A program made the position numbers and the translations under genes. Positions 24,775-34,165 of a stretch of 64,000 nucleotides of DNA are shown piece by piece. The stretch covers positions 496,001-560,000 of the forward strand of contig CT868074.1 of assembly GCA_000165425.1 (NCBI GenBank), in the 5' to 3' direction. The notes under the pieces are model-generated. The model was not told the DNA's origin. It saw nothing but the letters and a program-made list of their open reading frames with translations, and searched no databases. The stretch comes from Paramecium tetraurelia (taxonomy: Eukaryota). Position 1 is the stretch's first letter. Every line of letters starts with the position of its first letter.

Positions 24775-25362
24775 ATGAGCATATAAACCACACTTTAAAG
24801 TACTTAAGAAGAATTAACAAAATTGCAATCACTTATATAGGAACTCTCAGAAAAAGGCAATCTTGATGAAATAACAGAGGGAATGAGTCACAAAGATTAA
24901 ATTGAACTTAATCTCAACTTGGCTTATACTCTGTCTTCACTCTATTATTGTAAAATGTACTATAATTATTTAGCTTATTTAAAATTAAACTCAGTCGAAA
25001 CCTCTGCTCATCCTATTATGAATGAGTTATCTAGAATATAAGAGGCTTTCCAAAAATATTTGCCTTCATAAGTCAAACAACCAGATTAGAAATAAATGAG
25101 TCTGGATAGAGATGCTGCAAAGAGATTTATACAACCTAATTTAAAGAGCTTAGATGATAACCAAAATTATTAACACAAACAAAAAAAATTAATCGAAGAA
25201 GATAAAAATAATACTACTAGACTTGAATAACCTGTAGATATATGGAAGAATGAAAAGGATTAATAGGATTAAAATAAACAAAAATTAATTAGAGGAAATC
25301 TCATCCCCTAAACAGGTCATTTGAATTGGAAAAATCAGATTGAGAAATTAATGAAAAAATGA
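24775..25362 (+). CDS. C1D/Rrp47 (Sas10/C1D domain) exosome cofactor
   Basis: LNLAYTLSSLYYSYLKLNSVETSAHPIMNELSRIQ...LDRDAAKRFI. One 24-nt intron. Confidence 0.85.
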
Positions 25363-28018: not shown

Positions 28019-28361
28019 ATTAAATTAAAAGTGAATATTATAAATAATTGACAATTACAATTATAATTGTATTTATAAACAATTGATATTACATATATCA
28101 TATTAGGTTGTTTTCAAAATGTATTTAAACTATTATGTTAATGAGAATGAAGTAAAAAAGGATTTGAAAGTTATAATCATATTTAATAAAGGAAACAATG
28201 AATACACAAAATATATAAGTTGCAACACTATTAATTAACATGGTTCTCATTATTGAAGAAAAAAGAATCAAATTATACGAAAAAATTTGCTTTTATAATT
28301 GTTTAAAGATAAATTCCTCAGAATTTTAAATTTAATTAATGATATAATTTACAATTTCTTA

Positions 28362-29907
28362 TCAAGGAAATAATCTACTTGAATCTCTTGGAAACAAACT
28401 TGCGTTTCTAATATTTTTTAAATCAAAGTATAAATATAGGAATCTTTCTAAACCAAATGCACATCCTCCATGAGGATAGGATCCATACCTTTAGATATAG
28501 AATAATACTTCACCTGAAGGAATTAATGTAGTCTTTTAATAGTTGAGCATCTTATCCTATTCCTTTTAGTTAATTATTTAAATGTTCTGGATCATGAATT
28601 CTTTAATGGCCTGATGCTATTTCTTCTCCTCTCAAAAAGAATTTGTAAGATAAATTAAAATTAGGATCCACTTTACAAGGCATAATACAGGAATTTTAAT
28701 TTTCTCTTGGTAATCTATTCAGAATGAAAAAGTCAGTTCCATATTTCTCTTTTACTATCTTTCCTAATTACTTTTAATTTGTAATGCAAAAATAATATTA
28801 AGGACTTTAAACAATACCAACTTCTTGAAGTAATTTTATTGCATCAAAATATGTTAATTTGATAATAGGGTAACAAATCTTAATAGGTTAAAACTAAAAC
28901 TACTTTGCGATGATTTAAATTTCTTAATCAAACTTTTTCTCAATTCCCTTCAATATAAATAAACATAATTCTTCTGTCAGATCTAGCAATTCAGTATAAT
29001 TTTCTTTGATAACCATTTCTAAATCCATACATATAAATTCACACAATTCTCTATGAGTGTTACCATGAAGTGCCCGAAATGCTGGGGATACTTCAAAAAC
29101 TCTTTCAAAATCAGCCATCAGACACATTTATTTATATTTACAAGATGATTAGGATAAAAATGCTTGATAATTAAAGTACTATAATTTAAATTTGCAATAG
29201 TTATTTTTTGTATTAAATCCTAATAGTTTTGGAGTATGAATTTCAATAAACCCCTTTTCTATTAAAAATTATCTAAAAAGCAAAGCTATTCCTGATTTTA
29301 CTCGAAAAATGGCCTATTTTGCAGGAGTTCTTAAGTCAAGAACTCTATTATTTAATCTTTAATTTTGAGATATTTGATAATCTTGAATTTAGATTAACTG
29401 CTGTTGATCTTCATTCTACTTTTACTATTATAAATTAGGATAATAATCAATAATTTTTCTTGAAGCTTCTTCAATTTGAAATGGCAATTTAGTAATTGAT
29501 CTACTTATCACTCTAATAGTTTATATATGTAATTCAACTTATTAAGTACAATCCTTGATCTTAAAATTTGTTTATAAAACAACAGCTTCTATGTCAACTA
29601 CAGATTCCAAATTGATTCCTCCTGTGTATTTAATCATTTGCGAACCTATTTGTTCTCCTTTTGTTAAAACAGCTTAGATTGTATACCAATTTTCTCTGAG
29701 AACTAAAAAAGCAATTTTTCCTTTCATTCTAGAATTGTGAATCCTAGCTCTGAGTAAGATAGTTTTTCCAATTGTTGATTCATTGATTTGACTTACTTTC
29801 ATCCATTATCGATTTGTTTTCTAAGACTATTATATTAATGAAACATCCCCATATCTATCTCCGTCATTAATGTCTTACTATTTCTCATTCAATTACTAAT
29901 TAATCAT
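28362..29907 (-). CDS. Aspartyl-tRNA synthetase-like protein (eukaryotic cytosolic type, divergent active site)
   Basis: OB anticodon domain (RARIHNSRMKGKIAFLVLRE), RLNNRVLDLRT, EIHTPK, YKQMCLMADFERVFEV, RGEEIASG.QRIHDP, FGLER, FPRD. One 25-nt intron near 28489-28513. Confidence 0.9.
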
Positions 29908-30535
29908 TTAATTATTAGATCTCTTGAAATCTTTTAAAATAATTCTTTTATATAGTATAAGGACTTATTAAAATTATTGATTTATAAATTGTTGATACTA
30001 AATTAATTGTAATAAAATAGCAACCAATCCATTTCCATATTGAATGTCCTCCTAACATTATATAAGTAATAAAATTATTAAATAAATCCAATATCAAGAA
30101 CATTTGATAGTAGTAAATAATAATTTAATATTATGAAATTCGTATACAAAAAGCAAATCGTAAAACCAAATAGATAAGCTGTTTAAATTGCTTTGGAAAA
30201 TTTGCATTTATTGAATTATTCTAACTTTTACAAAATCACCCCAATCCACATTCATTTCCTAAATCAATAATTGACTTGAATTGACCTATATTCTAATGTG
30301 AGAACAATAATAGCTATGAAACGCAGCATAAAATTATTTCCAAATAAAAGTTATGAATAAGTTAAGAATCAGTTTAAAATTCACTATATTCATTATTATT
30401 ATTATTAGAGTTCCAGTTTTTTTAAAGATAATTAAGTTTCATAACCTTTAATCAAACACTTAATTTTTCTTTGTTATATCATTGATAGATTGGATATTTC
30501 ATTTTATAATTATTAATATAATTTATTTATAGTAA

Positions 30536-32874: not shown

Positions 32875-34165
32875 ATGAAACATATTTCATAAAATTCATA
32901 GAATTAGTAACTAGTCACAAAGACCTACAATGACATCCCATTCACCATTTACAACCGCTATTAAGGAATTAAATTATTGGGAGCTGGATCATATGGAACA
33001 GTGTTGTTAGCTTTGGATACCCAGACCAACACCAAAGTTGCAATTAAAAAATTAAATCCATTAGAGGATATCATAGATGCCAGAAGAATGTTGAGAGAAA
33101 TAAGAATATTGAGAGCTATGACTCATCCCAATATAGTTGCAATCAAAGCAGCCATCTATGATAACGTATCATAAGAAAGCGATTATTTTGGCACTGTCTA
33201 TTTAGTGCAAGAATATTTTTAGGCTGATCTTCACAGAGTTCTTAAAAATCCAAAAGACCTCACTGATGATCATGTACAATTCATCATGTATTATATCACA
33301 TCCTATTTGAGGTATCAATTAACCAAGGCAGTGGCCTATTTGCATTCAGCATCCATCCTACATAGAGACATTAAACCATCCAATATCTTAGCCAAAGATG
33401 ATTGCTCTATAAGTTTATGTGATTTCGGTCTCTCCAGATAAATCGAAGAATACGAAGAAGAAGATAATAAAAAATCATAAAATTTCACAGAATATGTTGT
33501 CACAAGTATAAACAATCTAAAATCTTACTATAGGATACTACAGAGCACCAGAAATTATGGTTTCTTCTCAATAATACTCATTTCCTATTGACATATGGTC
33601 ATTGGGCTGCACTTTCGCTGAAATATTAAATGAAGGAAAAGTAAATTATTATACAAAAACTATCAGGTCCTCTTCAAAGGCAAAACTTATGTTTAAATGG
33701 TTAAGATGATCTTTGAAACACTCGGTAAGCCTGTCTAGGAAGACCTGGATTAATTCATTAAAAACAAAAACGCTATGGAATTTGTTCAATCTCTGCCAAG
33801 TGTTCCACCATAATCAATCAAAAAGATAATTGATTATCCCAATCCCCTAGCTATAGATTTATTGGATAAGATGCTTGTAATCAACCCTCACAAAAGAATC
33901 ACAGCTCATGAAGTATGATATATCATTAAATCAGGCTTTAAACCATCCTTATTTTAAGGAGATAAGAGAAAAGACTGAAGAAGCGCCTTATAAAGGGTAG
34001 ACTGACTTTACATTTGAAAATGATGACACAATTAGTTTTGAACAGATGAGAATTATGATCCTCGAAGAATTGAATAAATTAAGTGAAAAGATAGATATTC
34101 ATGATGAAATGGAAAGATTAAAACAACTTAAAGAAAAAAGGAGAGCCTAAAAGCATAAAAAGTGA
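32875..34165 (+). CDS. Mitogen-activated protein kinase (TEY activation motif)
   Basis: [48 protein letters not shown]. Four tiny introns. Confidence 0.95.

Follow-up and report, generated by a model that had tools for sequence, protein, structure and literature searches.

The stretch analyzed here is a window of 64,000 nucleotides (nt) from Paramecium tetraurelia (contig CT868074.1, positions 496,001 to 560,000 of the forward strand), and all coordinates given below refer to this window. On its minus strand, at 29907..28362, lies a divergent paralog of the gene for aspartyl-tRNA synthetase (AspRS), made up of two exons and one intron and read with the ciliate code, in which TAA and TAG specify Gln. 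A frame of 465 codons opens at the start ATG (29907-29905) and runs into a TGA; an intron of 25 nt, 41 further codons and the stop codon TGA (28364-28362) follow. Exon 1 (28514..29907) comprises codons 1-464 and two bases of codon 465, the intron (28489..28513) has GT..AG borders, and exon 2 (28362..28488) extends from the last base of codon 465 to codon 506 and the TGA, encoding motif 3 and the C-terminal tail (PF00152 positions 274-307). Joined from the window, the exons give 1521 nt, i.e. 506 amino acids (aa) plus TGA, and the spliced product is identical to the database protein P0003 (GSPATT00007566001, UniProt A0CH59), labeled aspartate--tRNA ligase in the source records. An earlier interpretation made from the letters alone, henceforth the sequence-only reading, had proposed an intact AspRS paralog at this position; its coordinates and strand were right and the frame is open, the 25-nt intron having been omitted.

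The paralog is transcribed and spliced. A spliced mRNA contig of 1615 nt (28326..29965, minus strand; run X17, record 10) covers the whole message, exon 1 starts at the first ATG of this contig, and no upstream ATG occurs in the 58 nt of 5' leader that the RNA contig covers. Exactly 25 intron bases are absent from the contigs of all three RNA-type runs, which stem from three studies (X20, RNA-Seq on record, and X17 and X18, guessed to be RNA; the contigs carry no expression level), and these bases are present in the single DNA run (X16). The read aligner puts the gap at 28487-28511, and a GT repeat makes both placements equivalent, with the same product. One contig of the DNA run appears to join 28049 to 30067 and to skip the whole paralog gene; one side of this jump consists of 26 AT-rich nt with 2 mismatches, and the match is probably fortuitous or due to a paralogous sequence. 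No tRNA genes were found in the window, and the search for repeats around the paralog gene returned nothing meaningful.

The encoded protein has the same fold and the same domain order (OB, hinge, class II core) as the canonical cytosolic class IIb AspRS, represented by human DARS1 (4j15), yeast DPS1 (1asz) and the two canonical P. tetraurelia enzymes GSPATT00014863001 and GSPATT00038118001. It aligns to DARS1 with an E-value of 4e-107, its best solved relatives are the human, Entamoeba and yeast cytosolic AspRS (4e-107 to 4e-89), and PF00152, the Pfam model for the class II D/K/N core, matches it with an E-value of 4.7e-41. The AlphaFold model of the paralog has a mean predicted local distance difference test score (pLDDT) of 73, and its top Foldseek matches are eukaryotic AspRS (E ~1e-48). 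The OB-fold anticodon-binding domain (aa 46-140; 29488..29772, minus strand) is intact, with a model pLDDT of ~85-93 and a PF01336 score of 25.6 bits, just below the cut-off of 27. Absent from the paralog is the Lys-rich N-terminal helix found in the canonical Paramecium copies, to which, in human AspRS, non-specific tRNA binding and hand-over to EF-1alpha are attributed (PMC3824080).

Protein searches for relatives returned orthologs from P. octaurelia (P0004, CAD8150445) and P. sonneborni (P0005, CAD8081948), and residues listed in threes below follow the order P. tetraurelia, P. octaurelia, P. sonneborni. All of the motif changes listed by the sequence-only reading are real, as judged from the alignment to DARS1 and from a second one to nine canonical Paramecium AspRS of five species. 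The former flipping loop (FNTKNNYC, aa 231-238; 29194..29217, minus strand as are all features that follow in this paragraph) has lost the canonical SEGG, TSEGGTNV having become NTKNNYCK; where canonical enzymes have SEGG, the three proteins have TKNN, TKDS and TQN(D)N, and the loop of P. sonneborni carries an indel. QSPQ (aa 253-256; 29140..29151) is replaced by QSSC in P. tetraurelia and generally by QSS followed by C, F or Y at position 256. Both the SEGG and the QSPQ positions are invariant in 115/115 non-Paramecium AspRS. In motif 2 (aa 277-291; 29035..29079) FRAENSNTHRH has turned into FRALHGNTHRE, with Glu280 replaced by Leu, Leu and Ile and His287 by Glu, Gln and Glu, the Arg being kept in P. 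tetraurelia and P. octaurelia. DDLDT has become YYFCIT, and RPFYTMP (aa 404-410; 28678..28698) has become QNSCIMP. The N-S-C at 405-407 is private to P. tetraurelia, P. octaurelia having the canonical P-F-Y; these are three adjacent changes in a young branch, and a compensated frameshift is a possible origin. The segment SYK...GEEIASGHQR (aa 420-436; 28600..28650) shows SYD Asp replaced by Lys and SGAQR by SGHQR. Across the three species position 422 (canonical D) is K, K and V, position 429 E, E and A, position 436 R, R and K, and position 236 N, S and N. Motif 3 (GGCAFGLERF, aa 472-481; 28440..28469) keeps its Arg in P. tetraurelia and P. octaurelia and has Lys in P. sonneborni.

Compared with canonical AspRS, the paralog lacks the Lys-rich helix, SEGG, the Pro and Gln of QSPQ, the Glu and His of motif 2, the Arg of RPFY and the Asp of SYD. 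It retains motif 1 and the KQ of QSPQxxKQ, together with YKQ, D.EM, GEEI.SG and GLER, the last four of which had correctly been described as kept. The P. sonneborni ortholog has gone further and has also lost the motif 2 Arg (R278Q), the GEE Glu (E429A), the Asp-binding Arg (R436K) and the motif 3 Arg (R480K). What the altered residues do in an active enzyme is indicated by structures of Plasmodium AspRS as reported in PMC12262901: aspartate is bound through its amino group by the SEGG Glu, and adenine is contacted by two motif II residues, the Glu (at the amino group of the base) and the His. In the same structures a further Glu, E554 of PvAspRS, coordinates Mg2+. At the position equivalent to the SEGG Glu the paralogs have Lys or Gln. 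Judging from these replacements, the paralog is most likely unable to make aspartyl-adenylate. The flipping and motif 2 loops also have low pLDDT in the monomer model; this is not diagnostic, as they are disordered in apo human AspRS too.

The sequence-only reading had asked whether the canonical ciliate enzyme carries the same substitutions, and it does not. Both canonical P. tetraurelia AspRS retain all motifs, and the canonical copies of P. octaurelia, P. primaurelia, P. pentaurelia and P. sonneborni, which are near-identical to each other, also keep every motif, so that the substitutions are not a general feature of ciliate AspRS. They also go far beyond what chance would give: none of the 115 non-Paramecium AspRS shows any change at the 12 positions taken as key to catalysis. 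Conservation in the same 115 proteins reaches at least 99% at 88 positions; canonical P. tetraurelia AspRS keeps 86 of these, and 59 are kept in all three divergent orthologs. Of the 29 changed positions, 20 vary among the three species. Because so many of the changed positions differ between species, the catalytic pocket looks abandoned, not retuned. Scores against TIGR00458, the NCBIfam AspRS equivalog (cut-off 368.4), are 355.2 for P. tetraurelia and 354.6 for P. sonneborni, and 449.9 for the canonical P0125. The aspartate--tRNA ligase label of A0CH59 is, on the residues present, almost certainly misleading, and the protein not such a ligase.

An active ligase with a rebuilt pocket would read the same changes differently: the protein would use another substrate, or would place Lys422 where Mg2+ was, and would charge tRNA-Asp or another acceptor. 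P. tetraurelia and P. octaurelia do retain the motif 2 Arg (R278), Lys259 (K259), Asp295 (D295), Arg436 (R436) and the motif 3 Arg (R480), and comparable replacements are seen again in the degenerate AspRS copies of other lineages, described below, in which three arginines are mostly kept. However, a tuned pocket would be conserved, and pocket positions 256, 236 and 422 vary by species; the flipping loop of P. sonneborni contains an indel, and in this species the motif 2 Arg has given way to Gln, the motif 3 Arg and R436 to Lys, and E429 to Ala. We regard such an enzyme as very unlikely. Of the three options that the sequence-only reading had offered, changed specificity is accordingly disfavored by the arginines and the GEE Glu lost in P. 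sonneborni, and a tRNA-binding pseudo-enzyme or dimer partner is favored by catalytic residues that are lost and drifting and by an anticodon-binding fold and a predicted dimer interface that are kept.

The contrast between the regions of the protein was quantified by scoring, in the three orthologs, those residues on which all of 22 canonical rows agree. Those of the OB domain are kept in all three orthologs in 10/10 cases, in line with the anticodon domain having been described as normal-looking, and those of the hinge in 11/13. In the catalytic domain 56/86 are kept and 30/86 changed (OB vs catalytic p 0.028). The predicted dimer-interface positions are kept as well. At 65 interface residues, which were taken from the predicted model and are a proxy for the class II interface, 53 positions are identical in the three orthologs, as against 149/254 in the rest of residues 188-506 (p 0.0005). 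This excess survives stratification by family-wide conservation (Mantel-Haenszel odds ratio 3.3, permutation p 0.0001), and in the two most conserved strata the interface keeps 32/32 positions and the remainder 79/124. Moreover, a heterodimer of the paralog with canonical P. tetraurelia AspRS is predicted with a score of 0.93, the best of three controls scoring 0.00; the mark set for this score is reached by 51/78 solved complexes and by 2/108 mismatched pairs. At least 79% of the predicted contacts agree between runs, and the partner has a pLDDT of at least 80. The heterodimer score should be interpreted with some caution, since it may reflect likeness to solved AspRS homodimers and not binding by the paralog.

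From the loss of catalytic residues and the pattern of constraint we infer, with moderate confidence, that the paralog is a non-catalytic AspRS-like protein which would still dimerize and bind tRNA-Asp. The divergent copies are 86.9% identical between P. tetraurelia and P. octaurelia and 66.5% between P. tetraurelia and P. sonneborni, over 495 shared columns; the corresponding figures for the canonical copies are 98.2-99.6% and 94.7-95.6%. A C1D-like gene (Sas10/Utp3/C1D family; 24775-25362, plus strand), present as one copy in each of five aurelia species and in P. bursaria, served as rate control. Since this neighbor is 93% and 78% identical in the same two comparisons, the paralog, fast as it is, evolves only about 1.5-2 times faster than an ordinary gene.

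The number of non-synonymous changes per site (dN) was counted as a minimum on protein differences, i.e. as the fewest nucleotide changes per amino-acid difference starting from the P. tetraurelia codons. Between P. tetraurelia and P. octaurelia 69 changes in 1208 non-synonymous sites give a dN of at least 0.059, and between P. tetraurelia and P. sonneborni dN is at least 0.205. With genome-mean values for the synonymous rate (dS) of 0.214 and 1.007, respectively, as listed in S6 Table of Sellis 2021, the estimated ratio of dN to dS (omega) is ~0.28 and ~0.20, figures that rest on a genome-mean instead of a local dS and on a minimum dN. Independently of omega, 117 codons of the paralog lie one step from TGA, and no nonsense change occurred; the neutral expectation is 8.3 between P. 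tetraurelia and P. octaurelia (P of none 2e-4) and ~39 between P. tetraurelia and P. sonneborni. Differences between P. tetraurelia and P. octaurelia are also rarer at family-conserved sites (18/229 vs 46/260, p 0.0012). By these estimates the paralog is not a relic and is under purifying selection, with an omega of about 0.2-0.3. A decaying pseudogene was rejected as an explanation, given the intact frame, the spliced transcript, this omega and the lack of nonsense changes; an unexpressed duplicate with a ratio near 1, which the sequence-only reading had named as one outcome that would undo its proposal, is not what the gene turned out to be.

Several observations nevertheless weigh against a maintained non-catalytic subunit. 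No ortholog was found among the proteins of P. primaurelia or P. pentaurelia, in the same search that returned their canonical AspRS and their C1D-like neighbor, and the paralog therefore appears dispensable in some lineages. Its rate of evolution is about 8-30 times that of the canonical copies. An omega of ~0.28 is close to the ratio of non-synonymous to synonymous polymorphism (piN/piS) of 0.33 given for P. tetraurelia paralogs with loss-of-function alleles (PMC9206413), and both omega and the interface set are proxies in the sense stated with each. Finally, the Arg, Lys and Asp residues that P. tetraurelia and P. octaurelia retain in the pocket would allow residual or altered ligand binding.

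It could be asked whether the gene is a slowly dying duplicate that became redundant long ago, its leftover constraint being selection against a misfolded or dominant-negative dimer partner and not for any role that the protein itself plays. The high rate (87% identity between P. tetraurelia and P. octaurelia, against 98-99.6% for the canonical copies), the catalytic positions that still drift, the P-F-Y to N-S-C change at 405-407 in P. tetraurelia alone and the two species in which the protein search found no ortholog would all fit, and gene loss after whole-genome duplication is described as slow and ongoing, with one copy asymmetrically relaxed (PMC9206413, PMC10195154). On the other hand, the frame has stayed intact in three species over a dS of ~1, for which 39-43 nonsense changes are expected neutrally. 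Nor would such a duplicate be expected to combine an omega of ~0.2-0.3, conserved OB and interface residues and a spliced transcript with a rate only about 1.5-2 times that of the C1D-like neighbor, and the branch pattern suggests a split from the canonical gene that is older than the aurelia radiation. We consider this explanation rather unlikely.

In a maximum-likelihood (ML) tree of 30 rows the three divergent copies group together (100/100) as sister to all canonical aurelia AspRS, within a 100/100 Paramecium clade. A second ML tree of 37 rows again places the divergent Paramecium copies with canonical Paramecium (100 in the Shimodaira-Hasegawa-like approximate likelihood ratio test, SH-aLRT). 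The stem of the divergent clade measures 0.62 and its crown branches 0.26-0.37, vs at most 0.064 for the canonical tips. The length of the canonical stem suggests that the duplication predates the aurelia radiation. The recent genome duplication is dated to ~320 million years ago (PMC9206413). Synteny is uninformative on an origin by whole-genome duplication, the C1D-like neighbor having only one copy in each species. The contigs that carry the divergent AspRS and this neighbor have the same length in P. octaurelia (690,422) and different lengths in P. sonneborni (617,368 and 632,937), an arrangement that points to rearrangement or to retention of different duplicates. The canonical duplicates, for their part, cluster by species group and not by copy (P. 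tetraurelia with P. octaurelia, P. primaurelia with P. pentaurelia), which suggests gene conversion between them.

The Paramecium paralog is not alone. An exhaustive search of 1.84 billion representatives was made, and of the best 150 matches 149 were screened, the query being excluded. Among these best matches 117/149 cover all 12 key positions, of which 105 are without change, five have one change and seven have five or more; with partly covered rows included, 11 rows have four or more changes. Ten of these 11 rows were looked up, and six of the ten come from Tetrahymena thermophila (XP_001011634), from dictyostelids (three rows, Dictyostelium discoideum among them), from the rotifer Adineta vaga and from the fungus Podila humilis. 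In the 37-row tree the fungal copy goes with a fungus (99), the rotifer copy with an animal (93) and the dictyostelid copies with each other (88); for the Tetrahymena copy, which clusters with other long branches (95), the placement is suspect.

The ML trees support independent origins for the degenerate copies of Paramecium and Tetrahymena, and pairwise identities agree. The Paramecium paralog is 57-58% identical to canonical Paramecium AspRS, 46% to canonical Tetrahymena AspRS and 41% to the degenerate Tetrahymena copy, which in turn is closest to canonical Tetrahymena (44% vs 39%). One ancient AspRS-like family could nonetheless be imagined, shared with Tetrahymena and perhaps more widely, the Paramecium member of which has been partly homogenized by gene conversion. 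States shared with XP_001011634 (L-H-G in motif 2, SYK, IASG, and RDS for RDP) would follow from this, and the approximately unbiased (AU) test leaves the tree uniting the three Paramecium copies with the Tetrahymena copy unrejected (delta log-likelihood 17.9, p-AU 0.153). Yet the divergent Paramecium copies fall with canonical Paramecium in both ML trees (100/100 and 100), are nearer to it in identity (58%) than to either Tetrahymena protein (46% and 41%), and have in common with it the Paramecium-only states GGCAF, M.LEMVI and RLFP; the fungal and rotifer copies likewise group with fungi and animals. A single ancient family is highly improbable in our view.

The degenerate copies have changed at the same places. 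Out of 34 invariant positions that are changed in Paramecium, 23 are changed in at least three of the six other groups, vs 13/77 of those unchanged in Paramecium (odds ratio 10.3, p 4e-7). Convergence is seen at the interface, where RDP becomes RDS, and at Ser282 (replaced by Gly or Ala) and Asp422 (replaced by Lys or Arg); a hydrophobic residue also recurs at 280. The three arginines of motif 2, aspartate binding and motif 3 are mostly kept, being changed in 1, 0 and 0 of the six other groups. Duplicated cytosolic AspRS thus seem to reach a loss-of-chemistry fate repeatedly in eukaryotes. It is possible, though we put it forward only tentatively, that eukaryotes have independently and repeatedly converted an AspRS duplicate into the same dead subunit, with the loop and acidic residues lost and the OB fold, three arginines and interface kept, which would point to a selected role.

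This pattern can be related to an observation made by von der Dunk and Snel in 2020 (PMC7414715), who list in their Table 1 aspS1/aspS2 duplicates with P = 14 independent duplications and recurrent fates, the differentiation being unknown. The degenerate copies described above have the same formerly invariant positions altered as the Paramecium copy. No residues or function are named in that article for aspS1/aspS2, and the loss of the active site with retention of OB domain and interface was mapped in the present analysis. Paramecium is absent from the main text, and aspS2, Paramecium and Tetrahymena are absent from the one supplement searched. Apart from that screen, our literature search found nothing specific on GSPATT00007566001 or on Paramecium AspRS paralogs.

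Among class II synthetases, dead paralogs for which a role has been proven are few (SLIMP, HisZ). SLIMP, a SerRS-like protein that partners the mitochondrial SerRS2-alpha of insects and invertebrates, is likewise described as a class II paralog in which the active site is ablated, the tRNA-binding domain and the dimer interface are kept, and selection acts (PMC10570016; PMC9437257). Unlike SLIMP, the Paramecium paralog derives from another synthetase family and is of the cytosolic, not the mitochondrial, type, and its heterodimer is a prediction only. Because a single AspRS subunit makes most of the contacts to each tRNA, a dead subunit would be of no obvious help to a live one, in contrast with SLIMP. 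Other proteins derived from the AspRS catalytic core are asparagine synthetase A (AS-A)/AS-AR and ErdS, the only AspRS-derived ones listed in Table 1 of a 2022 review (PMC9437257). AS-A has no anticodon domain and has kept adenylation, and ErdS is an active AspRS fused to DUF2156 (PMC9437257); the paralog differs from both in having an anticodon domain, no fusion and a degenerate pocket.

Three further candidate roles were rejected. An AsnA-like asparagine synthetase does not agree with the presence of the OB domain or with an NF005052 score of 76.8 against a cut-off of 368, and a mitochondrial AspRS role does not agree with an acidic and short N-terminus and a degenerate pocket. As to the reading of UAA and UAG as Gln, AspRS is not involved in the reassignment and nothing in the data points there; the sequence-only reading had been rightly cautious in claiming no link.

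At other loci, one of the two canonical AspRS copies (P0129 in P. tetraurelia, P0124 in P. primaurelia) has ~30 extra annotated N-terminal residues rich in Arg, Leu, Ile and Phe. This extension looks like a mitochondrial presequence, and would fit dual targeting of the canonical enzyme. Within the window, 32875-33591 (plus strand) matches Pkinase (E 6e-36) and is the beginning of a protein kinase gene that extends past this frame, presumably across introns.

In conclusion, the data are best accommodated by a non-catalytic but retained AspRS-like protein with the following putative history. Within the Paramecium lineage, and ahead of the aurelia radiation, the cytosolic AspRS gene would have been duplicated. 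One copy would then have shed its Lys-rich N-terminal helix, together with the flipping loop and those acidic residues that serve adenine and Mg2+ binding, while purifying selection kept the OB fold that reads the tRNA-Asp anticodon, the hinge and the class II dimer interface. The product may pair with itself or with a canonical AspRS subunit and may bind tRNA-Asp without charging it, acting as a silent subunit or as a holder of tRNA-Asp in the way that SLIMP acts with mitochondrial SerRS. Loss of chemistry at the same positions in several lineages, with the tRNA-reading and pairing surfaces kept, makes the open aspS1/aspS2 observation concrete and testable. If the recurrent conversion is real, the candidate role would be that of an asymmetric AspRS heterodimer or of a tRNA-Asp holder, and the Paramecium gene would be one independent and experimentally tractable instance of it, in an organism in which RNA interference by feeding and tagging by microinjection are possible.

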